Shown here piece after piece: positions 11,826 through 29,020 of a stretch of DNA of 64,000 nt (its first letter is position 1; every line of letters begins with the position of its first letter). A program made the translations under genes and the position numbers. The notes beneath the pieces were generated by a model that ran no database searches, was not told the origin of the DNA, and was given only the letters and a program-made list of their open reading frames with translations. The stretch covers positions 726,647-790,646 of the forward strand of contig CP066688.1 of NCBI GenBank assembly GCA_016432425.1, written 5' to 3'. The stretch is from Candidatus Daviesbacteria bacterium. Its GTDB lineage: Bacteria > Patescibacteriota > Microgenomatia > Daviesbacterales > UBA10151.

Positions 11826-13139
11826 TTAAAAACCATTAATTAAAACCACCGGCTCCGGGTGTTTATTGGAAGGGTCGCTGTGGCCACTACCTAAAATTTC
11901 TGCTAAAGCCTTCAGGCTGTCCCTGACCTGGGTCCAAGTAGCTCCCGGGTTTGATTTTAAATACAGGGCTGCAGTTCCAGCTACATGAGGTGAGGCCATG
12001 CTGGTTCCGCTGATGGATTTATATCTACCTCCTACCCAGGTGGAATTAATGCTCACTCCCGGCGCTGCCAAATCTACCACAGATCCAAAGTTAGAAAAGC
12101 TGGCAAAAGTATCATCTGCCCCGTAAGTGGTGGCAGAGCCCAAACCTCCAGCCAAACCATCTGAATCACTCAAAGCAGAAACTGTGATGAGAGCATCATC
12201 ATAAGCAGCAGGCACCATCAAACCGGCATCCTGGTTGCTGTTGCCTGCAGCTGCCACATAGGTTATCCCTGCCGAGGCAGACCTGCAGATAGCCTGATGT
12301 AGAGCATCCTGATTTGAGCTGCCGCAGTTATTATCACTTTGTCCGCCTCCTCCCAGGCTCATATTGGCAACTTTAATATTAAACTTAGAGGCATTTTGGG
12401 TCACCCAGTCAATGCCGCAAATTACCGAAGACCAGGTTCCACTGCCACGGGAGTCTAAAACTTTAACTGCCATCAGTTTGGCCTGAGGGGCTACCCCTAC
12501 CACTCCCAGATTATTTTGCAGGGCAGCAATTGTCCCGGCCACATGGGTGCCGTGGCCGTTATCGTCATCACCTTTTCTTAATGGTCTGATGCAGTTCACA
12601 TTGGCCAAAATATTGCCTGCCAAATCCGGATGGTCCAGGTCAATACCGGTATCAATGACTGCCACCCCGATACCATCACCATAATTATTAAGCTGGATGC
12701 CGTTAATTCTTCTGATGCCGGTAGGAGTGGATTGGACAGCAGTTGTGCGGTGACTTAAGGCAAAAACTTTTTTATCCTGGGAGATAAATTTTACCCTGGA
12801 ATCCTGTCTGATCTGCTCAATTTTTTGATCAGTAATATTGGCTGAGAAACCTTTAAGGGGCTTTGAGTATTTATGTTTAATGCTGATTTGGTGCTGGCCT
12901 TGAAGCTGATCAGCCACCTCAGCAGGATTTTGTACCTCATCTTTGAACACCACAATATACTCGCCCGGGATATTCACAGAAATATTTCCTTCTTGAATTT
13001 TTGATTCTCCCAAGTTCCCCTCAGCGCTGTTGTTTGAGGTATTAAGGTTAAGATTAATATTGGTCTCAGTAGCTAAAATTGGCGCAGCAAGGAAAAGATA
13101 GAGGAAGGAAGCAAAAAGCAGCAGAGCAGTCTTAAACAT
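11826..13139 (-). CDS. secreted subtilisin-like serine protease (peptidase S8) with I9 propeptide
   Basis: Catalytic triad motifs VAVIDTGID (Asp), HGTHVAGTIAA (His), GTSMASPHVAG (Ser). N-terminal signal peptide plus inhibitor-I9-like prodomain. Confidence 0.9.
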   Translation of the reverse strand: MFKTALLLFASFLYLFLAAPILATETNINLNLNTSNNSAEGNLGESKIQEGNISVNIPGEYIVVFKDEVQNPAEVADQLQGQHQISIKHKYSKPLKGFSANITDQKIEQIRQDSRVKFISQDKKVFALSHRTTAVQSTPTGIRRINGIQLNNYGDGIGVAVIDTGIDLDHPDLAGNILANVNCIRPLRKGDDDNGHGTHVAGTIAALQNNLGVVGVAPQAKLMAVKVLDSRGSGTWSSVICGIDWVTQNASKFNIKVANMSLGGGGQSDNNCGSSNQDALHQAICRSASAGITYVAAAGNSNQDAGLMVPAAYDDALITVSALSDSDGLAGGLGSATTYGADDTFASFSNFGSVVDLAAPGVSINSTWVGGRYKSISGTSMASPHVAGTAALYLKSNPGATWTQVRDSLKALAEILGSGHSDPSNKHPEPVVLINGF

Positions 13140-15836: not shown

Positions 15837-18290
15837 ATGAATAAATTAGCTGTAAACTTTACTGCCTTAATATTAATAATTAGTCTAGGTTTAAATGGGC
15901 CTGTCGGGTTAGTATTGGCTCAAGAAGCTACTCCTAGTGCGGAAAGTTCCACTACCGAAAATTCCACCACCGGCGCTAATTCCACCAACACTGCCACTGC
16001 AACTGTAGACCAAACTTCTACCACCACTAACACCAATGATGCCATTGCCGTTAACACTACTGATGCACTTTCTGCCTCCGGGGATAATGCAGCTTTAGAT
16101 AACACGGGTGATGCTTCAATCACCACCAACACTGCTGCAACCTCTGCTACTACCTCAACTGAAACTAACCAAACTATTTGGGAACCAATGCCCTGGACTA
16201 CTTGGACAGGTGAGGGTGACTGGCAGACCAGAGCAGAAAACTCCACCACCGGTGCTGACTCTACCAACACCGCCACAACTAGTGTTTCACAAACAGATAC
16301 CCTAACCAACACCAACACTGCTGATGTGACAAACAGCGCTACTACTACTTCTTTAACAGGCGCAAATGTTGCCTCGGATAATACCGGCTCAGCCACTATC
16401 AGCACCGGGAATGCCTCCACCACCACCGCTACTCAAACTACTGCTAATACTAACATTGTTTCCTGGACAGGTGAGGGTGACTGGAGCAATCTGTGGAACG
16501 GTGAGGCAGTTAATTTTCTGACCGGTGCTAACTCCACCAATACTTCAAGTGTAGATTTTACTAAAGTGCTGGATGTTTTAAATGAAAACGGGGTGAATGT
16601 GGATAATTTGATTGCCTCCTTTGCCACCAGTGGAGATAATATTGCCTCGGATAATACCGGAAATGCCACTATTACTACCGGTAGCGCCTTAGTCCTTTCC
16701 ACTTTATTTAATCTGGTTAATACTAATATTTTTGGTACTGATATTATGGAGATTCTATACCAGGATATCTTCGGCACCTTTTCCGGAAATATTGACCTAT
16801 CTTTCGGCAACTTATTTTCTTTGCCCAACTTAATCTCCCAGCCTTTAACCCTAAATTCCAGCAACGATACCACTGGTTTTAACTCGGATAATACAGCCAC
16901 TACTGTAGGCAGTTTCACTGTGGATATCACTAATGATAATAGCGGTGTATTAAATAATGCCCTAGATTTATTTGCCATAACCGGCTCCAACACTGCCTCG
17001 GATAATACCGGAAACGTGCTAGTGGAGACAGGAAATGCGGAGGTTATGGTTAACTTAGTCAATTTCCTAAATACTAATATCTCCACCAATGAGCTTTACC
17101 TGGGGGTAATTAATGTCTTTGGGGACTGGACCGGGAATTTGATACTGCCTGAATATAATGGGGTAACCAGTAGTTCCCCGCTACCGCTACTTTCATCAAC
17201 AAAAAATATCCAAACAGGTGCTACTTCAGATAATACTGCTACTATGACCACAGATAACATTTTGACTGTAGATAATACTAACAATGCTACTGTTGATAAC
17301 GTATTCAACTTATTTGCTGAAACAGGAGGTAATAGCGCCTCTGATAATACTTTATCAGCCAGTGTTACCACCGGTTTGTCCCAAGTGGAAGCCAACCAGG
17401 CTACCTTTGCCAATACTAACGTGGTAAGTAATGCTCCCTGGTGGTTAGTTATAATTAACAATTTAGGCACTTGGGTACCGGTACTACTGCCTCCTTTAAA
17501 CATCGGGACACAGCTGGTTTTGGATTTAGATGATTTGGGAATGAATATTCCCAGCAGCAGTGAAACTTTAGATTTAACTGCCGCTAATAATCTTACCGGT
17601 AGTTTATCCAGCAATGAGGCAAGTGTCACTTTGAATTCTGAGACTAATATTACCAATACTAATGTGGGAACAATTATTAATGATGTTAGCGCTTTAGCTT
17701 CAACAGGAGGCAATGAGGCTAGTAGAAATACCGGATCGGCCACAATTGCCAGTGGTAATGCTTCTATCTTGGTTAATACTTTAAACTTTCTCAATACTAA
17801 TGTAATAGCACCCTCGATACTAATATCAATAGTTAATGTTTTCGGCAGCTGGATGGGAGATGTTTTAAGCTTTGGAACACAAGCACCTCTTCCGGCCGTT
17901 TCTGCCCCCGACCAGCCTATTGCCCAGGCAGAAAACTCGGGAAATATCACCAATGCTCCAGCCAGTCCTTCCAACCCCACCACATCTTCCGAGACAAATT
18001 CATCCCAGAGTTCACCAAGTGTAAATTTTAGTTCTGCCGCACCCCTTTCATCCGTGTCTAATAACCAAAGTACCACCCCTCCCAACTTTAATACCCAAAG
18101 CAATATTCAAAACCAAGAAGGCGAAGTTTTGGCATTTTATGAGGAAAAAGGTGGTGGGGACGGAGGATTCCCCTCTCAAGTAAATGAGGAAACACCGGAT
18201 ACAAAAGGAACTCTTATCCTGATGCTAATTGCCCTGACAGCTGTTTTGTTCATCTTAACAAGAGTTAGCAGAATAATTTCACGAAAATGA
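15837..18290 (+). CDS. secreted Thr/Asn/Ser-rich tandem-repeat protein with C-terminal TM anchor
   Basis: Signal peptide MNKLAVNFTALILIISLGLNGPVGLVLA. Repeats SGDNAALDNTGDASITTNTA, TGANVASDNTGSATISTGNAS, SGDNIASDNTGNATITTGSA, TGSNTASDNTGNVLVETGNAE, TGGNEASRNTGSATIASGNAS. C-terminal GTLILMLIALTAVLFILTRVSRIISRK. TGA stop overlaps the next ATG (ATGA). Confidence 0.75.
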   Translation: MNKLAVNFTALILIISLGLNGPVGLVLAQEATPSAESSTTENSTTGANSTNTATATVDQTSTTTNTNDAIAVNTTDALSASGDNAALDNTGDASITTNTAATSATTSTETNQTIWEPMPWTTWTGEGDWQTRAENSTTGADSTNTATTSVSQTDTLTNTNTADVTNSATTTSLTGANVASDNTGSATISTGNASTTTATQTTANTNIVSWTGEGDWSNLWNGEAVNFLTGANSTNTSSVDFTKVLDVLNENGVNVDNLIASFATSGDNIASDNTGNATITTGSALVLSTLFNLVNTNIFGTDIMEILYQDIFGTFSGNIDLSFGNLFSLPNLISQPLTLNSSNDTTGFNSDNTATTVGSFTVDITNDNSGVLNNALDLFAITGSNTASDNTGNVLVETGNAEVMVNLVNFLNTNISTNELYLGVINVFGDWTGNLILPEYNGVTSSSPLPLLSSTKNIQTGATSDNTATMTTDNILTVDNTNNATVDNVFNLFAETGGNSASDNTLSASVTTGLSQVEANQATFANTNVVSNAPWWLVIINNLGTWVPVLLPPLNIGTQLVLDLDDLGMNIPSSSETLDLTAANNLTGSLSSNEASVTLNSETNITNTNVGTIINDVSALASTGGNEASRNTGSATIASGNASILVNTLNFLNTNVIAPSILISIVNVFGSWMGDVLSFGTQAPLPAVSAPDQPIAQAENSGNITNAPASPSNPTTSSETNSSQSSPSVNFSSAAPLSSVSNNQSTTPPNFNTQSNIQNQEGEVLAFYEEKGGGDGGFPSQVNEETPDTKGTLILMLIALTAVLFILTRVSRIISRK

Positions 18291-19201
18291 GAAATAAGTT
18301 AATTAGTTTAATTATCTTGATCGGATTGACATTTGCTATACCCGGATCCGCGATGGCAGATACCGAAGTGACATCGTCTAATTCCTCCACCGGTGCTGAC
18401 TCTACCAATACCACCAGCTCAACTGTCACCAATGATAACTCTGTTGTCAATAATAATACGTCAGTAGTTACCAATACCATTGATATTACGGGCTCAACAG
18501 GAGCCAACAGCGCCTCAGCTAACACCGGTGACGGTACAGTTGGTAGCGGCTCAATAGACGGCAATGTGGAGGTAAGCAGTACCGATAATCAAAATACTAC
18601 CCTTTTGACAGATAGCGGCAGCATCAATATTACCCAACAAAATACAGAGACCGGCAGTAATTCAACAAATTCCTCCAGCATTAATGTCAGCAATATCAAC
18701 ACCGTTACCAACACTAATGATTCTGTCAAAGAAAATAACTTAATTGTCGATCTTTCCACCGGAGGCAATATAGCAGATGGAAATAGCGGTGGAAGCAGTA
18801 TCACCAGCGGAGATATCACATTTAATGTCGGAGTCACTAATGTGGATAATATCAATGAAACAAATATTGGCCCACCGGCTCCGGGAGGAGTTTCTCAGCC
18901 ACCTGAGGGCCAGGGAGGACAACAGCCGCCACCCCAAGTAGGTGGCGGAGGAGCAGCCATAGCACAAGCCCTGGGAGGGCCAACAGAGGTTACTTCTGCC
19001 CAACCTGCAGGTGAAATATTGGGAATTTCCTCCTTGCCAATTACCGGCCCCACAATAAATCTTTGGATTTTAGCGCTGCTGGCTGCCTCTGTGGCATTGT
19101 TAGGTTGGTTTATGATTAACCGCTCCTACGCTTGGGAAAAAGCCTTAATTAGAAAAAGACTCTCCTTTTCAATTAAAACCCCGCCGAGAAGGCGGGGTTA
19201 A
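18287..19201 (+). CDS. secreted repeat protein with LPXTG (LPITG) sortase cell-wall anchor
   Basis: Signal peptide with AMA-DT cleavage region. Repeats TGANSASANTGDGTVGSGS and TGGNIADGNSGGSSITSGD. Pro/Gly-rich stalk. C-terminal LPITG + hydrophobic segment + RKRL tail is a canonical sortase sorting signal. Confidence 0.75.
   Translation: MRNKLISLIILIGLTFAIPGSAMADTEVTSSNSSTGADSTNTTSSTVTNDNSVVNNNTSVVTNTIDITGSTGANSASANTGDGTVGSGSIDGNVEVSSTDNQNTTLLTDSGSINITQQNTETGSNSTNSSSINVSNINTVTNTNDSVKENNLIVDLSTGGNIADGNSGGSSITSGDITFNVGVTNVDNINETNIGPPAPGGVSQPPEGQGGQQPPPQVGGGGAAIAQALGGPTEVTSAQPAGEILGISSLPITGPTINLWILALLAASVALLGWFMINRSYAWEKALIRKRLSFSIKTPPRRRG
19179..19197. terminator. GC-rich hairpin overlapping the operon stop codon (possible bidirectional terminator)
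   Basis: CCCCGCC-gagaa-GGCGGGG at the end of 18287-19201. It sits between convergent genes (DUF378 on the minus strand). No clean T-run on the plus side. Confidence 0.35.
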
Positions 19202-19230: not shown

Positions 19231-19428
19231 TTATTTCTTTCCACCATCCATTAACAACATGTAAACTTTATACACTCCTACCACACCGATGACAATATAA
19301 ACTACTTTAGTTAAAGTAGTACCCGTACCCAAGATTGCTTCAACTAAATTCAGGTTGAGCAAACCAACTAGTCCCCAGTTAACAGCTGCTATAGCTACTA
19401 CCCAACCGACTAAAGCTTTGGTACCCAT
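19231..19428 (-). CDS. DUF378-family small membrane protein
   Basis: MGTKALVGWVVAIAAVNWGLVGLLNLNLVEAILG matches the DUF378 signature (..ALNWGLVG..). 65 aa, two TM helices. Confidence 0.7.
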   Translation of the reverse strand: MGTKALVGWVVAIAAVNWGLVGLLNLNLVEAILGTGTTLTKVVYIVIGVVGVYKVYMLLMDGGKK

Positions 19429-19499: not shown

Positions 19500-22400
19500 T
19501 TAACGAAGAGAACGTGGAGTTGGCACTGAAGGTCTAACCGCTCCGATAATCTTTTCTAGACTTAAAAGATGTTGTTGTGGCGTATCGAATACCCGCAGTA
19601 TTCCCCATAAACCATCATTTAAATGATTGAAAAAGACGTTACATTTGAATAAAAAGTCCCCCGCAACACTCCCCGCACCTCCACCTCCCAAAAGCGTCAA
19701 ATTAAAAGCCCTGCCGGTATTAATACCTCCTTGAGTGTTTAGTATCGTTGATTGCGGATCATTTTGCTCATGCATCCAACTGTGTCCATGAAGATTAAAA
19801 GCATGTCCCCGAGGTTTATCTTGCGGATTAAAAACCCTCAAGACAACCGGATCACCTTTGTAAGCTTGAAATACCGGCGTGGCCGGGTCATTGTGTCCCA
19901 CTTCCGGATTGGAACTGAAAATCCATGCCTCTTCGCCCTCATGGGCAAGCCGGTTGGCAAAACGCTCTGCCCGGTAATTAATACCTTTATGCCCTTGGTC
20001 TTCCGGATCTGTCTTTCTTGGGGTATTGGAATCCTCTATATCCTCATGGCCTTCTTTAAGATCAGGAATTGGCAGATTGTTTTTACTAAAGAGGTTTAGA
20101 CCATCCTGAAAGGCAATTACAAACTCCCGAAAAGCTTTATATTTTCTCTCCGCTTGATCAAAATACTTAATCACTGCCGACTCCCCGCTTTCTGTTGGAG
20201 TACCTTTTTGAGGATCTAGATAAGTGGCAAATTTATGTTCAACTATTAAGCCCCCAAAAAGTCCATGGTGGCGATGCCCGCGGATGTCCCCAAAATCCGC
20301 CAAATTTATAATCCCCAAATTTTTAGTATCAACGTACCATTTGTAGCTAATGGTTTCCCCTGGTGCTATTGTCTGATCAAAATTATATCCTACAGTTGCC
20401 CCATCTGAACCAACCACGTCATATTTTAAAAGATGGGGGTGTAGGGAAACTCTTTTGCTGGTATTCCACCGAGGATTACTATCCTCTTTCTTTTCTTCTT
20501 CCTCCACACCACAGGAGTCAGCGCCAAACGCCTGATTGCAAACCGTCCCATCAGCAAGTTTAGGAAAAATATCTTCCGGCGGATGGGTATCACCCACATG
20601 GGGTTTAATCCCTTCTGTCGGCAGTAAATTTTTCAGTGTGATATTAATACAATCTCCTTCATTAGCCCGGATAAATAAAGGTTTATCAGAAGGAATTGGT
20701 TTATTGGCTTTGTCCAATAAAGTATACATCAGGCCATTGGGATCATGGTCTCCCTCGCCGTTATAGACAATTTTTTTAGAGATAGCTCCTAATTTGTAGT
20801 TTCGTTGTGGCGCTCCCGGCAAACAAGGATTTCCCGGACTCTTAGCTTTTTTCAAAGGTTCTCCTGGTTTTAAAGCTGGCCACTGCGAAGTGGCAACCGG
20901 AGGCTTATTTTGGGGCAATGGTTTTAGATCAGGAGTTTGTGAGGCAAAAACCCTCATAATTCCCCACATTCCGTTCCATAAATCATCCATCGGTAAAGAT
21001 CCATACAAATAATCGCCAGAAGATCCGGCCCCACCCAACAAGATTTGAGTTGCTCCGTGTATCATCTCTCCAATTTCCCTGGCTCTTTCTGCACCCGATA
21101 ACCTTTTAACCAATTTTGTCCCCTGAAGCTCAAAATTAAAAAACTCCGCAATGTTCATTGATTGGGCATCATACAAATTAGACTGGGGATCATCGGGCTC
21201 ATGTAGCCAACGATGGCCATGAATATTAAAATTATGTTGTTCTTCGTGAGCGCCTTGCACGAGACGGACCACAATCGGATCCCCCCGGTAAGCTTTAAAA
21301 ATCGGCGTGGCCGGATCTCCAAAAACAGCGGAACTAAAAATGTAGGCAGGATCATTTTTATTGGCAATTGAAGAAGGCAGATGCGGGTTGATTCTGATTT
21401 GGAAAGGTTCGTTGCGGTAGTTAACAGTCATGGTCCCCTGGTCTGCGCCATAATCTCCAGCTCCATCCATACCTCTGGGGGAAATCGGCACTATATCTTT
21501 CTCTGCAGGCCCTTGGTTTCCGGGTAAATCCGGAGCAGGCCTAAAGCCAGGCACAAAATCAGCGTAAAAAATACTAAATTCCCTAAAACTGGTACCCTTA
21601 GGAACAATAATATTAGCCGTCGTTCCCACCCCATCGCTGGAAGAACCATCTGGTTTTTCCCAGGTAGAACCATCTGGCTCCACATTCCAGGCAGCATAAA
21701 GACCATGCTGCTGGCCGGTGTTGGGAAATTGATGATCGTGGAAAAATACTGTCCGAAGATTCATATCCACAAAAAGCCTGCTGCCAATTGTTTGACCGGC
21801 CAGCGCTGACTGATCATAATTCCAACCGACCGAAGTTCCGTCAGAACTTAATAAATCGTACATAAAAAGATGCGTATGAACACTTAATTCGCTCATTGGT
21901 CCTTGATGATGAAAAATCTGGTCTTCAAACAGATCTTTTTCCCCATCTCCATGGATATCTACCGGCACAGGTTGGCCTACATTTTCAGGATTATTTAAAT
22001 CATCCTCATGGGTAAGGTTGGTAAAACGGATATTGGCGCATTCACCAACCTGGTTACGGATGACATAAGGTTCAGGCTTTTCTTTGCCGGATAAAACATC
22101 TTGAAGATGTGATTTTTCCACGTATAGTTTTCCGTCGGGATCTTGCCACCCACCTGTCCCGTTACCGCTTTCATTCATCACTAACGCTTTAAATGTGGGA
22201 TGGTCCGGATCAGCATCAATCGCCACCGGGTGATAGGTTCTTTCTTTAGCACCTGTTGGGCAAGGGTCCTGATAAAAAACGCCAGGTGTGGTATCACTCC
22301 CGGGTCGGCCGTTATTGCCGGCCATATTGGTTTTTTCCAACTCGGTTGGTTTTCTGACGGTATCTCCAGGGCGCCTGAGCGGTTTGTTATTTGCATCAGT

Positions 22401-24017
22401 TTGATAAGGGTCTTCAACCACAAAATTTGGCGGACGGTAAGCTTTTTGTAGAAACTGGCCTTTGATAAACAAAGGGAAACCCGGTTGTACCTCGGTGGGA
22501 GCAACTGTCAGTCCTTTTCTGTCTGGTAGTTCCTGCAGGGTTTCGATTGGTGTTCCGTCAGGATAAACTTGGTTATATTCTGTATTGCGAAGTTTGTCAA
22601 AGGTCCGCAAGGTCCCCCAAAAACCTTGGGCAAAATGAGGGTAAAGATGGCAGTGAAAAATAGCATCACCTGGTGATCCGGGAGCGGCGCCAGCCCCCTT
22701 CTCATAGCGTAACTGAAAAGTTTGTCCCGGCCCAGTCAGTTGAACATCTAATCGAGTGGAGTTGGGATCATCCGGTTCATGAAACCAGCGATGTTGATGT
22801 TGATGAAAAGTATGATGTTCTTTTTCTCCGGGATGAATAATACGAAAGCGCAGCGGATCACCCACATAAGCCTTGGGTATTAGATTGTCACTATCAACAA
22901 CAATTTTCCCACCCTCTGTTTTAGAAACCAGCTTGCCATGGTCTCCAAACGGCCAGGATTGCAGATGTACTTCCTCACTAAAACATTTAGCTGATTGATC
23001 AGGAGCGATCTCCTTTAAGTCGGTATCAAAACCGTCACAGAAATTATCTGTTGGTAAAATAACTCTCCCGTTTGGCAAAGTCACAATTTTACCGGCTCGA
23101 TGATCTAAAATAGCCCGCAATCTATTACGGAGCGGTTCAGAACGGTAATTAAAACCGAAAGTGGAGTCTTCTAAATTAGTGGTAGGAAAAGTCGGATGCG
23201 ATCCTGAAGCATCAATAATTTCTTCATTTTCATCTAAAAATACCAAAGCGTAATCTCTAAAGTCATTGGGATTTTCTTTATCTCCTCCGGGTACTTCAAT
23301 ATCTGCAAAAACCGGCGTCTCGACACCGATTAGCTTCCCTGCAATATCTTTTAAAATTTCAGCTCCGGTAACAGGATTTCTCCAAACAGAACCTTTGGGT
23401 TCAACAATAAATCCCCCGTAAAGACCAATCTTCATGGTGTTTTTTTCACTGGCAGGATTAGTATTGGCCATATCATTAATGGGGAACTGGCCTTCGTTTT
23501 CGGCATACCAGACGTAGACTCTTTCCTCTCCTGTGGCAGCAGTGGTATCATTGTTGAGGCCGACGCGGCTGCCGTCAGAGGTCTTTGGGTCATAAGATAA
23601 ACCTGCTATTGTCATACCTACCCGCTTATCCGGAACCTCATTTTTAAAACGGACTACCACACAATCCCCCGCATTGGCCCGAAGCACCAAAGGAGAAGCC
23701 AAATTTTTATTGCCTAAAATGCTGTCTTTATTGGGGAAAGCCTGAGGGTTATTTAAAGCGTAGATGTTAGCTTTTGTAAAACGGTCACCCCAACCATTTA
23801 GAGGTAAGTCTGATACTTCAAAAGCGGCTACATCATAATAAATAGTCCGCTCTGATTTTTTATCCTGACAGATTTTAGTATTTCCAGTCTCTGGATGATC
23901 GGATGAGTAAAGTGCCAAAACATGATGTTGTTTGAAAAGAAGAAAAAATACAGTTATTAAAAAGCCCACAAAAAGTAGGCATATTCTAAGCTTAAAATAA
24001 TTAATATTTAAATGCAT
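19500..24017 (-). CDS. giant (1505 aa) membrane-anchored multicopper-oxidase-like protein, three fused laccase-like modules
   Basis: N-terminal TM (ICLLFVGFLITVFFLLF). Module A has degenerate L1/L2 (MTIAGL; IGLYGGFIVEP without His) but intact L3 HTFHQHQHRWFHEPDDP and T1/T3 motif FHCHLYPHFAQGFWG. Module B has HTHLFMYD, FFHDHQF...HGLY and FNIHGHRWLHEPDDP; its L4 is lost (YGSLPMDDLWNGMWG). Module C has LHPHLLKYD, GHRHHGLFGGLIV and FNLHGHSWMHEQNDP; its L4 is degenerate (FKCNVFFNHLNDGLWG). Confidence 0.75.
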   Translation of the reverse strand: MHLNINYFKLRICLLFVGFLITVFFLLFKQHHVLALYSSDHPETGNTKICQDKKSERTIYYDVAAFEVSDLPLNGWGDRFTKANIYALNNPQAFPNKDSILGNKNLASPLVLRANAGDCVVVRFKNEVPDKRVGMTIAGLSYDPKTSDGSRVGLNNDTTAATGEERVYVWYAENEGQFPINDMANTNPASEKNTMKIGLYGGFIVEPKGSVWRNPVTGAEILKDIAGKLIGVETPVFADIEVPGGDKENPNDFRDYALVFLDENEEIIDASGSHPTFPTTNLEDSTFGFNYRSEPLRNRLRAILDHRAGKIVTLPNGRVILPTDNFCDGFDTDLKEIAPDQSAKCFSEEVHLQSWPFGDHGKLVSKTEGGKIVVDSDNLIPKAYVGDPLRFRIIHPGEKEHHTFHQHQHRWFHEPDDPNSTRLDVQLTGPGQTFQLRYEKGAGAAPGSPGDAIFHCHLYPHFAQGFWGTLRTFDKLRNTEYNQVYPDGTPIETLQELPDRKGLTVAPTEVQPGFPLFIKGQFLQKAYRPPNFVVEDPYQTDANNKPLRRPGDTVRKPTELEKTNMAGNNGRPGSDTTPGVFYQDPCPTGAKERTYHPVAIDADPDHPTFKALVMNESGNGTGGWQDPDGKLYVEKSHLQDVLSGKEKPEPYVIRNQVGECANIRFTNLTHEDDLNNPENVGQPVPVDIHGDGEKDLFEDQIFHHQGPMSELSVHTHLFMYDLLSSDGTSVGWNYDQSALAGQTIGSRLFVDMNLRTVFFHDHQFPNTGQQHGLYAAWNVEPDGSTWEKPDGSSSDGVGTTANIIVPKGTSFREFSIFYADFVPGFRPAPDLPGNQGPAEKDIVPISPRGMDGAGDYGADQGTMTVNYRNEPFQIRINPHLPSSIANKNDPAYIFSSAVFGDPATPIFKAYRGDPIVVRLVQGAHEEQHNFNIHGHRWLHEPDDPQSNLYDAQSMNIAEFFNFELQGTKLVKRLSGAERAREIGEMIHGATQILLGGAGSSGDYLYGSLPMDDLWNGMWGIMRVFASQTPDLKPLPQNKPPVATSQWPALKPGEPLKKAKSPGNPCLPGAPQRNYKLGAISKKIVYNGEGDHDPNGLMYTLLDKANKPIPSDKPLFIRANEGDCINITLKNLLPTEGIKPHVGDTHPPEDIFPKLADGTVCNQAFGADSCGVEEEEKKEDSNPRWNTSKRVSLHPHLLKYDVVGSDGATVGYNFDQTIAPGETISYKWYVDTKNLGIINLADFGDIRGHRHHGLFGGLIVEHKFATYLDPQKGTPTESGESAVIKYFDQAERKYKAFREFVIAFQDGLNLFSKNNLPIPDLKEGHEDIEDSNTPRKTDPEDQGHKGINYRAERFANRLAHEGEEAWIFSSNPEVGHNDPATPVFQAYKGDPVVLRVFNPQDKPRGHAFNLHGHSWMHEQNDPQSTILNTQGGINTGRAFNLTLLGGGGAGSVAGDFLFKCNVFFNHLNDGLWGILRVFDTPQQHLLSLEKIIGAVRPSVPTPRSLR

Positions 24018-24141: not shown

Positions 24142-24432
24142 TTATCTAGCTATAGTCAATTCCAGTGGGAGAACTATTCCTGCTTGATCTTCAAGATTAC
24201 CCACTCTTTTATTTAGTTTACTAATATTATCTTTATTATTTTCCGTATTTACTGCTATTTGATTCAAGGTTACTTTTTGTGCATCCAAATCTTCTTGTAC
24301 TTCAGTCATATTTTCAGTTAATTTAACAGTTTGCTCCCATAGAGTATCAAGTTTTTTTACAACTGGTTCCAAAGCAGTATTAACCTCTTCCTTAACTACT
24401 CCCCGGATTTGATTTAGATCATCATTAATCAT
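24142..24432 (-). CDS. hypothetical small coiled-coil protein
   Basis: 96-aa ORF with heptad-like charged/hydrophobic pattern (LEPVVKKLDTLWEQTVKLTENMTEVQEDLDAQKVTLNQ). Confidence 0.35.
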   Translation of the reverse strand: MINDDLNQIRGVVKEEVNTALEPVVKKLDTLWEQTVKLTENMTEVQEDLDAQKVTLNQIAVNTENNKDNISKLNKRVGNLEDQAGIVLPLELTIAR

Positions 24433-24797: not shown

Positions 24798-24841
24798 GAT
24801 ATTATATTCGAGAGTAAGTTCATAATCTGTCCAAAACACAT

Positions 24842-24912
24842 TGCGGGATCGTCTAACGGTAGGACAACAGACTTTGGATCTGTTTATCATGGTTCGAATC
24901 CATGTCCCGCAG
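24842..24912 (+). tRNA. tRNA-Gln (anticodon TTG)
   Basis: Acceptor TGCGGGA/TCCCGCA; D-arm GTC-TAACGGTAG-GAC; anticodon stem ACAGA/TCTGT with loop CTTTGGA; T-arm CATGG-TTCGAAT-CCATG; discriminator G. No CCA. Confidence 0.8.
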
Positions 24913-24999
24913 CCCATTCGACTCTGGTTCGACTACTTCGACTGTGCTCAGTACGAGTTCGCTCACCATCGCTCAGGGCTATAGCCGAATTATATAATT
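24910..24999 (+). repeat. 90-bp perfect direct repeat, copy A, starting in the last 3 nt of tRNA-Gln
   Basis: CAGCCCATTCGACTCTGGTTCGACTACTTCGACTGTGCTCAGTACGAGTTCGCTCACCATCGCTCAGGGCTATAGCCGAATTATATAATT is identical to 26110-26199, offset exactly 1200 bp. Confidence 0.9.
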
Positions 25000-27961: not shown

Positions 27962-29020
27962 ATGTTTGATCCTACCTACTCTATCACTACCACAATTTTA
28001 TCCAGAATTGCGGAAATTGCCGAGATTAAAGCAGCGATTGAACGTTCCCGGGTCCTGCCTTTAAACGAGGCCCAACTGCGCCGCCAGGCCATTTTGCGGA
28101 TGGCCCATACTTCTACTTCCATAGAAGGTAATAAATTGGCCCAATTTGAAGTAGGTAAGGTGTTGGAAGGTCAGGTAGTGAGAGCTCCCCAAAAAGATAT
28201 TCTGGAAGTAGAAAATTATTATCAGGCCTTAAAACTTTTAGATGAGCTGTCTAAAAAGAAAAATGATATTACCGAAGAAGAAATCTTGAATCTACATAAA
28301 ATAATTGTTAACGGTTTGGTGGAGCCGGAAAAGATAGGTAAACTTAGGCCCGGTGATGTTTATATTTTAGATGATTTAGGTGATGGCCGGGAGCAATTGC
28401 GTTTTAAAGCCCCACCCGCCAAAGAAGTAAAAAAATTAATTACTGAGCTGCTGGCTTGGTTAAAAGATTCCCGGGAAAAAGGAGTACATCCTATTATCAG
28501 AGCCGGAATCCTGCACTTGCAATTTGTGACTGTCCACCCTTTTACTGATGGTAATGGCCGTCTGGCTAGGCTGCTAACCCAACTGCTGCTTTATCGGGAT
28601 AACTGGGATTTTCGCCGGGTGATTGTTTTGGAAGATTATTATAACCGTGATCGGTTGAGCTATTATAGCGCGGAAAATTACAGCCAGGGCAAAAATTATC
28701 AAAAAGAAATGGATTTTACTCATTGGCTGGAGTATTTTACCACCGGATTTTTGGTGGAGGCAAGACGTGCTTTGGAACAAGTTCAGGCAATTGGTTTTGG
28801 TAAAAAGAGCCGCAAATCCGAACAGATTTTCTTAACTAATGATGAGCTGCAAATGATGGATTTTTTGACTACAGTGGGAAAAATTACTTCGGATGATGTG
28901 ACTGATATTCTAAAGGTGGGCAAAAGATCAGCCCAATTAAAACTAAAACGCCTCTTGGATTATAGATTGATCAAGCAAACCGGTAAGGGTCCGGCTACTT
29001 TCTACACCTTGGCCAAATGA
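27962..29020 (+). CDS. Fic/Doc-family protein (putative AMPylase) with N-terminal inhibitory motif and C-terminal winged-helix
   Basis: Fic motif HPFTDGNGRLARLL (HxFx(D/E)GNGRxxR). N-terminal inhibitory TSIEGN ((S/T)xxxE(G/N)). C-terminal HTH-like DFLTTVGKITSDDVTDILKVGKRSAQ. Confidence 0.85.
   Translation: MFDPTYSITTTILSRIAEIAEIKAAIERSRVLPLNEAQLRRQAILRMAHTSTSIEGNKLAQFEVGKVLEGQVVRAPQKDILEVENYYQALKLLDELSKKKNDITEEEILNLHKIIVNGLVEPEKIGKLRPGDVYILDDLGDGREQLRFKAPPAKEVKKLITELLAWLKDSREKGVHPIIRAGILHLQFVTVHPFTDGNGRLARLLTQLLLYRDNWDFRRVIVLEDYYNRDRLSYYSAENYSQGKNYQKEMDFTHWLEYFTTGFLVEARRALEQVQAIGFGKKSRKSEQIFLTNDELQMMDFLTTVGKITSDDVTDILKVGKRSAQLKLKRLLDYRLIKQTGKGPATFYTLAK

Follow-up and report, generated by a model that had tools for sequence, protein, structure and literature searches.

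A predicted MnxG-type six-domain multicopper oxidase with a single complete copper centre in Candidatus Daviesbacteria

Vasin et al. 2013 (PMC3600357) examined 23 prokaryotic six-domain proteins. In all the bacterial six-domain oxidases analysed, the histidines of the trinuclear copper cluster were found in domains 2 and 3 and the mononuclear site was confined to domain 2, with no mononuclear site in domain 6 of the prokaryotic proteins and with leftover ligands, from mono- and trinuclear sites that have been lost, remaining at the other positions (PMC3600357). The Bacillus Mnx complex MnxG-E3F3 is an experimentally characterised manganese oxidase (PMC5622069), the mnxG gene of Pseudomonas putida GB-1 (PputGB1_2447) is counted among the putative Mn-oxidizing genes (PMC9224936), and Bacillus MnxG is an enzyme of the spore exosporium, according to the title of Francis et al. 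2002 as it appears in the reference list of PMC9224936. We describe here a gene of this type from a different host, a bacterium of the candidate phyla radiation (CPR/Patescibacteria). The gene (19500..24017, reverse strand) lies in a 64,000-nucleotide stretch (hereafter referred to as the window) of contig CP066688.1 from Candidatus Daviesbacteria, and is a new, previously unannotated MnxG-type six-domain multicopper oxidase gene in an unusual host. Its product (hereafter referred to as the query) is best explained as an exported MnxG-type multicopper oxidase with six cupredoxin domains and one catalytic interface, for which Mn(II) would be the likeliest substrate; we assign this explanation as a whole a probability of about 0.82.

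The gene is a single uninterrupted open reading frame (ORF) with an ATG start, encoding 1505 aa, as reported in an earlier note on this DNA that was made from the letters alone (hereafter referred to as the earlier note). The product is 100% identical to the NCBI “hypothetical protein HYW45_03935” of a Candidatus Daviesbacteria metagenome-assembled genome (MAG). All twelve motif strings quoted in the earlier note were found, at aa 134-143, 193-205, 401-418, 454-468, 713-721, 758-779, 927-944, 1005-1019, 1192-1200, 1247-1259, 1405-1421 and 1457-1472. The chain contains a threefold repeat (modules A, B and C; Table 1), which the same note had also recognised and which is far beyond chance: blastp comparisons between modules yielded E-values of 1.8e-17 (A-B), 4e-14 (A-C) and 1.5e-43 (B-C), with 30-38% mutual identity in a MAFFT alignment.

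Sequence searches placed the query in the MnxG family. The best match in a phmmer search of the PDB was the MnxG chain of Bacillus sp. PL-12 (9bxa_A; E 6.6e-187), with which the query is collinear (query aa 74-302, 345-964, 999-1146 and 1185-1492 versus MnxG aa 17-230, 240-755, 759-911 and 922-1219). The next PDB matches were small laccases, the first domain of which aligned with query aa 102-176 and the second with aa 382-469. Both laccase domains therefore fall inside module A, so that one module corresponds to one two-domain laccase. Pfam gave weak matches to Cu-oxidase_3 (aa 96-208) and Cu-oxidase_2 (aa 386-471), again both in module A and with nothing between them. The sole substantial NCBIfam match was to the MnxG model NF041487 (“copper_ox_MnxG”), with 319.7 bits distributed over seven stretches.

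The predicted structure was consistent with this assignment. Two overlapping parts were modelled with AlphaFold2 from a 52-sequence alignment, with a mean predicted local distance difference test score (pLDDT) of 89.0 for aa 45-1045 and 84.9 for aa 585-1505, and a predicted template modelling score (pTM) of 0.90 for each. In Foldseek searches of the PDB, 9bxa_A (“Structure of Mnx H340A complex from Bacillus sp. PL-12”) ranked first for both models (E ~7e-84; TM-scores relative to the query, TMq, of 0.75 and 0.77; rmsd 2.9 and 4.0 Å), followed by ceruloplasmin and coagulation factors V and VIII (TMq 0.41-0.53). Two-domain laccases had TM-scores of 0.64-0.74 relative to the target (TMt) and TMq values of ~0.21-0.24, indicating that each laccase covers one module, and three-domain oxidases superposed less well (TMt 0.37-0.46; 1aoz 0.37, 2uxv 0.46). 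Because each module corresponds to a two-domain laccase in both sequence and structure (TMt ~0.70), the chain contains six cupredoxin domains, two in each of three modules that follow one another in tandem, rather than the nine that the earlier note had counted. Its view of the protein as a single-chain pseudo-trimer of laccase-like modules related to ceruloplasmin is borne out by the rank of ceruloplasmin and factors V/VIII directly behind MnxG.

The copper ligands were mapped in two ways, by HMMER alignment of module A with small laccases and MnxG and by alignment of the modules with one another, and their conservation was assessed by aligning 117 homologs, each 1150 aa or longer, with MAFFT. 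Copper-ligand motifs L3 and L4 are intact in module A and L1 and L2 are missing from it, as the earlier note had read them. In domain 2, H402-T-F-H405-Q-H407 (L3) aligns with the small-laccase motif HTFHMH (HTFHMHGHRW), and H455-C456-H457-LYP-H461 (L4) aligns with HCHVQSH (HCHxxxH). The type 1 (T1) copper ligands of this domain form a full set (H402, C456 and H461), and the trinuclear cluster ligands are also complete (8/8), with H405, H407, H455 and H457 contributed by domain 2 and H714, H716, H760 and H762 by domain 3. All 11 residues are 100% conserved in the 117 homologs, and 24 more genomes, belonging to Actinomycetota, Acidobacteriota, Gemmatimonadota, Myxococcota and Pseudomonadota, keep the same 11. 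The earlier note had proposed that a cluster is assembled from complementary partial sites of different modules; the domain 2/3 interface by itself carries the eight cluster histidines and the T1 site, and is predicted to be the single catalytic centre among the three inter-module interfaces. The axial T1 position is occupied by Phe (F466) in the query and in 88% of its near relatives, whereas Bacillus MnxG has Met. The 9bxa chain reads HCHLYPAF at the position of query H461, where the family has an invariant His, because the entry is the H340A mutant of this T1 ligand; the Ala is not a natural difference.

The ligand sets of the other two interfaces are incomplete: domain 4/5 has 3/8 cluster ligands and domain 6/1 has 1/8. 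In domain 1, T136 and A138 replace the L1 histidines and there is no His in place of L2, before GLYGG. In module B, the earlier note was right that L1 and L2 (domain 3) are intact and that L4 is lost (YGSLPMDD in domain 4), but the L3 that it considered kept reads H928-N-F-N931-I-H933-G-H935 (H-x-F-N-x-H-G-H), in which N931 replaces a cluster histidine; only H928, H933 and H935 are retained in domain 4. In module C, L4 is crippled as stated there, domain 6 reading K1458-C1459-N1460 with both cluster histidines lost. Two further assignments for this module did not hold. The “GHRHHGLFGG” run taken for L2 is out of register, as it lies 8-10 residues past the true L2, beside GLxG, and aligns with “GQQH” of module B; the true L2 positions, opposite H760 and H762 of module B, are A1240 and F1242, so that L2 is lost. 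L3 of domain 6 reads H1405-A-F-N1408-L-H1410-G-H1412, with one His replaced by N1408. L1 of domain 5 is H1193-P-H1195, the second His being confined to the Daviesbacteria-like clade described below.

From these alignments, the domain 4/5 and 6/1 interfaces are predicted to be evolutionary remnants, unable to hold a trinuclear cluster. The remnants of Bacillus MnxG differ (LHTS and NHRSF in domain 5; HTFHLHGH and no Cys in domain 6, versus HAFNLHGH with C1459 and H1465 in the query), a pattern that supports their interpretation as drifting vestiges. A type 2 copper site, or a functional partial cluster, at domain 4/5 (H933, H1193, H1195) was considered and rejected as unsupported: H1195 is confined to the clade, the conservation of H933 varies (62-85%), neither the true L2 nor the true L4 is present, and Asn takes the place of the type 2-ligand His in L3. 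The graded decay of copper sites noticed in the earlier note is the pattern already published for the family (PMC3600357). As a separate observation, H928, H935, H1250 and H1251 (RHHG, aa 1250-1251) and H1412 are 96-100% conserved in the 96 closer homologs; they occupy non-canonical positions or dead sites, are divergent in Bacillus MnxG, and might serve in a structural or second-sphere capacity or in another metal site.

The architecture of the query thus matches that of Bacillus sp. PL-12 MnxG (9bxa), which also has six cupredoxin domains in three two-domain modules, a T1 site in domain 2, a cluster in domains 2 and 3 with the motifs HxFHxHxH(R/Q)W and HCHLYPHF, and a degenerate HxFNIHG in domain 4. 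The query is ~280 aa longer, owing to the signal sequence and to inserts (e.g. aa 303-344, 535-590, 965-1000 and 1130-1185). MnxG of P. putida GB-1 (~1950 aa) shares the family and the domain 2 motifs FHLHGHQW and HCHFYPHFAQGMW; the Pseudomonas proteins are 24-28% identical to the query in the best segments and ~400 aa longer. The eukaryotic proteins ceruloplasmin, hephaestin and Fox1 share the six-domain pseudo-trimer fold (TMq 0.43-0.52) at ~11-12% sequence identity. In ceruloplasmin, the cluster lies between domain 1 and domain 6, with T1 sites in domains 2, 4 and 6; the query follows neither arrangement and is not of the ceruloplasmin type, because the L1 and L2 histidines are absent from domain 1, the L4 cluster histidines from domain 6 (1/8) and the Cys from domain 4. 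By contrast, the cluster of Fox1 lies between domains 2 and 3 (PMC3600357), as in the query. The small laccases (SLAC, Ssl1) resemble the query modules in fold, in the location of the cluster at the interface between units and in their near-identical L3 and L4, but are homotrimers with three active clusters, whereas the query consists of three fused units in which two clusters have decayed.

Homologs are numerous. From 8,000 candidates scored, at least 2,240 proteins were retrieved at E<=1e-5, several of which are named “manganese oxidase” by JGI (relatives ~50% identical to the query) and some “multicopper oxidase domain-containing protein” by NCBI. The earlier note had held this not to be a standard bacterial multicopper oxidase architecture. 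It belongs to the MnxG type, for which there are a solved structure (9bxa), a published layout (PMC3600357) and the homologs just mentioned, and which constitutes a frequent, already described subfamily with ordinary site content. None of these results overturns the current understanding of the six-domain oxidase family; the two mildly new points are the domain 6 triad discussed below and the Candidatus Daviesbacteria host.

The query and six relatives at 68-81% identity form the Daviesbacteria-like clade. Identity falls to 43-50% in the next relatives, which, where named, are mostly actinobacterial (Solirubrobacteraceae, Arthrobacter, Actinoplanes and others). The nearest relatives outside the CPR (actinobacterial/Solirubrobacterales proteins P0008-P0098; 43-50% identity over ~95% of the length, ~45-75% for a subset) share the inserts, the cysteine pairs and the active-site set with the query, and differ from it in having Asp at the position of C1459, Gly or Ser at that of H1195 and often His at position 136. 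No experimental characterisation was found for the P0008-P0098 proteins.

By the mechanism that we propose, the three small-laccase-like modules would fold into a pseudo-threefold ring, and the substrate would be oxidised one electron at a time at the domain 2 T1 copper (H402, C456, H461). The electrons would move through the H455-C456-H457 tripeptide to the domain 2/3 trinuclear cluster, which, after four electrons, would reduce O2 to two waters; the electron path and O2 reduction follow established multicopper-oxidase chemistry. By homology, the overall reaction may be the extracellular oxidation of Mn(II) to Mn(III/IV) oxide. Mn(II) as the substrate is proposed tentatively, by analogy, and its chances may be put at slightly below even. 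The characterised proteins of exactly this architecture linked here are Mn oxidases only, namely Bacillus MnxG and the MnxG of P. putida GB-1, the gene for which is reported, from genetic work, to encode a Mn oxidase. In multicopper oxidases, a non-coordinating axial Phe usually accompanies a high-potential T1 copper, as is needed for Mn(II) oxidation. F466 at the axial position is not expected to coordinate copper, and its presence is compatible with a high-potential T1 site in the query.

The same architecture might serve another substrate, a reading with a substantial, if less than even, chance of being correct. The enzyme could be a ferroxidase (like ceruloplasmin and Fox1), or it could oxidise Cu(I), phenols or humic compounds, or act as an extracellular O2 scavenger for a CPR cell that is sensitive to oxygen and poor in respiration. 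The position of the cluster at domain 2/3 is shared by the algal six-domain ferroxidase Fox1 (PMC3600357), and no manganese-related genes were present among the window genes scanned. The characterised Mn oxidases and the axial Phe speak on the other side. Further observations count against the identification of the query as an MnxG-type Mn oxidase, and some of them favour another substrate. The substrate specificity of multicopper oxidases is not readable from sequence. Identity to Bacillus MnxG is only ~32-33%. The NF041487 score of 319.7 bits is far below the equivalog cut-off of 3100 and so does not establish that the query is equivalent in function to characterised MnxG; this model (profile length 1894) appears to have been built on Pseudomonas-type MnxG, and the query is a family relative rather than an equivalog of the Pseudomonas-type MnxG behind it. 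Active Bacillus MnxG has been obtained solely as a complex with MnxE3F3, and MnxE and MnxF are without known homologs (PMC5622069). No candidate MnxE/MnxF-like gene was found next to the oxidase gene: the upstream ORF (24142-24432, reverse strand; 96 aa) encodes a coiled coil that draws nothing beyond coiled-coil noise in Pfam and matches no Mnx chain in the PDB (E<=10), and the other neighbours are unrelated. Finally, the contigs of three homologs (P0007, P0002 and P0013) share no neighbours with one another or with the window.

It is also possible, although rather unlikely, that H1405, C1459 and H1465 of domain 6 (axial L1470) bind a second T1 copper, forming an extra substrate-oxidation or electron-relay site comparable to the supplementary T1 sites found in ceruloplasmin. 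All three residues occupy the homologous T1 ligand positions when the modules are aligned, C1459 is the sole Cys outside the T1 ligand, the signal peptide and the co-conserved pairs, the triad is whole in five of the seven clade members, and the loop is modelled at a pLDDT of ~89-96. Conversely, the Cys-to-His spacing of the loop is one residue longer than the canonical spacing, and the triad is broken in two clade members (L/C/C in P0005 and H/S/H in P0007). Outside the clade, the domain 6 Cys is missing from 109/110 aligned homologs and from all 24 further genomes; in a neighbour-joining tree, the clade is nested among these Cys-less relatives, so that a second T1 site would have to be a regain. 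Should such a site exist, the query would be the first six-domain oxidase of a prokaryote to have several T1 sites in the manner of ceruloplasmin, and that in an ultra-small CPR bacterium. The triad poses a small question as to how six-domain oxidases lose and regain copper sites.

A non-catalytic surface or adhesion protein that, like coagulation factors V and VIII, has kept the six-domain fold is very improbable: these factors are among the structural matches, and the neighbouring genes encode a subtilase and secreted T/N/S-rich repeat proteins, one of them with LPITG, but all 11 catalytic copper ligands are strictly conserved in more than 117 homologs and across five phyla, which would be unexpected for a non-enzyme. 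A nine-domain chain of three three-domain laccases, in which no trinuclear interface is complete and the partial sites of different modules complement each other, is more improbable still, since the degenerate His motifs that all three modules do contain have to be set against modules that each equal a two-domain laccase, collinearity with six-domain MnxG, and an invariant domain 2/3 interface with all of its cluster ligands and a full T1 site.

The MnxG-type oxidase is probably exported. The hydropathy profile has a sole strongly hydrophobic segment (aa 10-28), with K9 and R11 at its start, followed by H-H-V-L-A/L-Y (the slash marks the presumptive cleavage position). The N-termini of homologs have AxA-type sequences at the same place (ALA/LH, ATA/QH and AQA/SG), and there is neither a twin-arginine motif nor a C-terminal anchor in the 1505-aa protein. 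Where the earlier note proposed a membrane anchor, a cleaved Sec signal peptide is thus the likelier interpretation. Four Cys pairs are co-conserved throughout the family (50/119, 327/345, 586/660 and 1065/1123) and, together with the N-terminal signal, are consistent with disulfides in an exported, extracytoplasmic protein. A fifth pair, 1160/1169 (TVCNQAFGADSCG; window ~20509-20540, reverse strand), lies inside a ~55-aa insert in domain 5, and is present in 7/7 members of the Daviesbacteria-like clade and 0/110 other homologs. This insert is probably a clade-specific surface loop stapled by a disulfide.

The gene sits on an 820,589-bp contig of the MAG, making mis-binning unlikely. In a crude neighbour-joining tree, the seven-member clade is nested within actinobacterial-type sequences, a position that would be compatible with an old transfer. 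GC content is raised in the 12-24 kb stretch of the window (42-47% versus 33-40% in the flanks). The GC content at third codon positions (GC3) of the oxidase gene is 0.36, which is host-like and matches its neighbours, and the excess is found in codon positions 1 and 2, and not 3, reflecting amino-acid composition. Recent horizontal transfer, or a genomic island, was rejected on these grounds, as the host-like GC3 gives no sign of recent acquisition. The orientation of the nearby tRNA-Gln gene is wrong for classical 3'-end integration on the oxidase side.

A scan of GTDB representative genomes identified relatives in Actinomycetota, Acidobacteriota, Gemmatimonadota, Myxococcota and Pseudomonadota, and in no CPR representative. 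No publication tying MnxG-type or multicopper oxidases to the CPR was found, in a literature coverage that was incomplete. The genomes of CPR bacteria are tiny, and respiratory chains are as a rule missing from these organisms, so that an extracellular O2-reducing metal oxidase in such a bacterium is in itself unexpected. The expenditure of 4.5 kb on an exported O2-reducing oxidase in a tiny, respiration-poor genome suggests a role in metal (Mn/Fe) oxidation, in oxygen detoxification or in interaction with a host surface. The main gain is a corrected annotation: the “hypothetical” Daviesbacteria protein can now with confidence be called a secreted multicopper oxidase of the MnxG type that has one predicted active centre, and a metal-oxidation role would place CPR organisms among the candidate manganese oxidisers of their habitats.

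Table 1. Coordinates of the oxidase gene, its parts and the surrounding features in the window.
Feature	Position (nt)	Strand	Basis or remark
MnxG-type six-domain multicopper oxidase (predicted), whole ORF, 1505 aa	19500..24017	-	homology, identity to HYW45_03935
N-terminal signal sequence, aa 1-35	23913..24017	-	hydropathy profile, homolog N-termini; cleavage inferred
Module A, aa 55-485, cupredoxin domains 1 and 2	22563..23855	-	Pfam, PDB alignment, module alignment, model
L3 of domain 2, H402-T-F-H405-Q-H407	22797..22814	-	alignment to small laccases 4uan/4w1t, conservation
L4 of domain 2, H455-C456-H457-LYP-H461-FAQG-F466	22620..22655	-	PDB alignment, conservation
Module B, aa 591-1035, domains 3 and 4	20913..22247	-	alignments, conservation, model
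L1 of domain 3, H714-T-H716, cluster ligands	21870..21878	-	module alignment, 100% invariant
L2 of domain 3, H760-D-H762, cluster ligands	21732..21740	-	module alignment, 100% invariant
Module C, aa 1069-1490, domains 5 and 6	19548..20813	-	alignments, conservation, model
Domain 6 loop C1459-NVFFN-H1465-LNDG-L1470	19608..19643	-	candidate second T1 site with H1405 (nt 19803-19805)
Secreted subtilase, Peptidase_S8 (E 3e-51) and Inhibitor_I9 propeptide	11826-13139	-	Pfam
Three consecutive secreted T/N/S/D-rich low-complexity proteins, 546/817/304 aa	14112-15752, 15837-18290, 18287-19201	+	no Pfam match
Antisense ORFs opposite the T/N/S-rich genes, up to 559 aa	14087-15766, 16433-17089, 17096-18103, 18265-18564	-	
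tRNA-Gln(ttg), ~800 bp upstream of the oxidase start	24841-24916	+	
Stand-alone GIY-YIG nuclease gene, 102 aa	25024-25332	+	
Fic/DOC family gene	27962-29020	+	

The oxidase gene appears to stand alone. The gene 72 nt downstream of its stop codon (19231-19428, reverse strand) encodes a small membrane protein of 65 aa (DUF378; Pfam E 2.2e-13), has its own strong ribosome-binding site (GGGGAGGTGA) and a promoter-like TTGACA-17-TAAAAT, and is not conserved beside the oxidase in the contigs of homologs. Promoter and terminator scans around the oxidase gene performed no better than shuffled controls.

The three T/N/S/D-rich proteins share a recurring unit of the type “...TGGNSADxNTGDGxVxSGDA...NxN...”, and their genes are convergent on the oxidase gene. 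At the end of the third, LPITG precedes a hydrophobic stretch and a basic tail, which together form a sortase-type cell-wall sorting signal. The long ORFs on the opposite strand are almost certainly artefacts of biased, repetitive composition rather than genes. Together with the subtilase and the oxidase, the repeat proteins make up a ~12-kb cluster of exported proteins with a raised GC content. On the far side of the oxidase, the GIY-YIG and Fic/DOC genes near the tRNA-Gln gene could be small mobile or toxin-type elements. In total, the window contains 13 tRNA genes.

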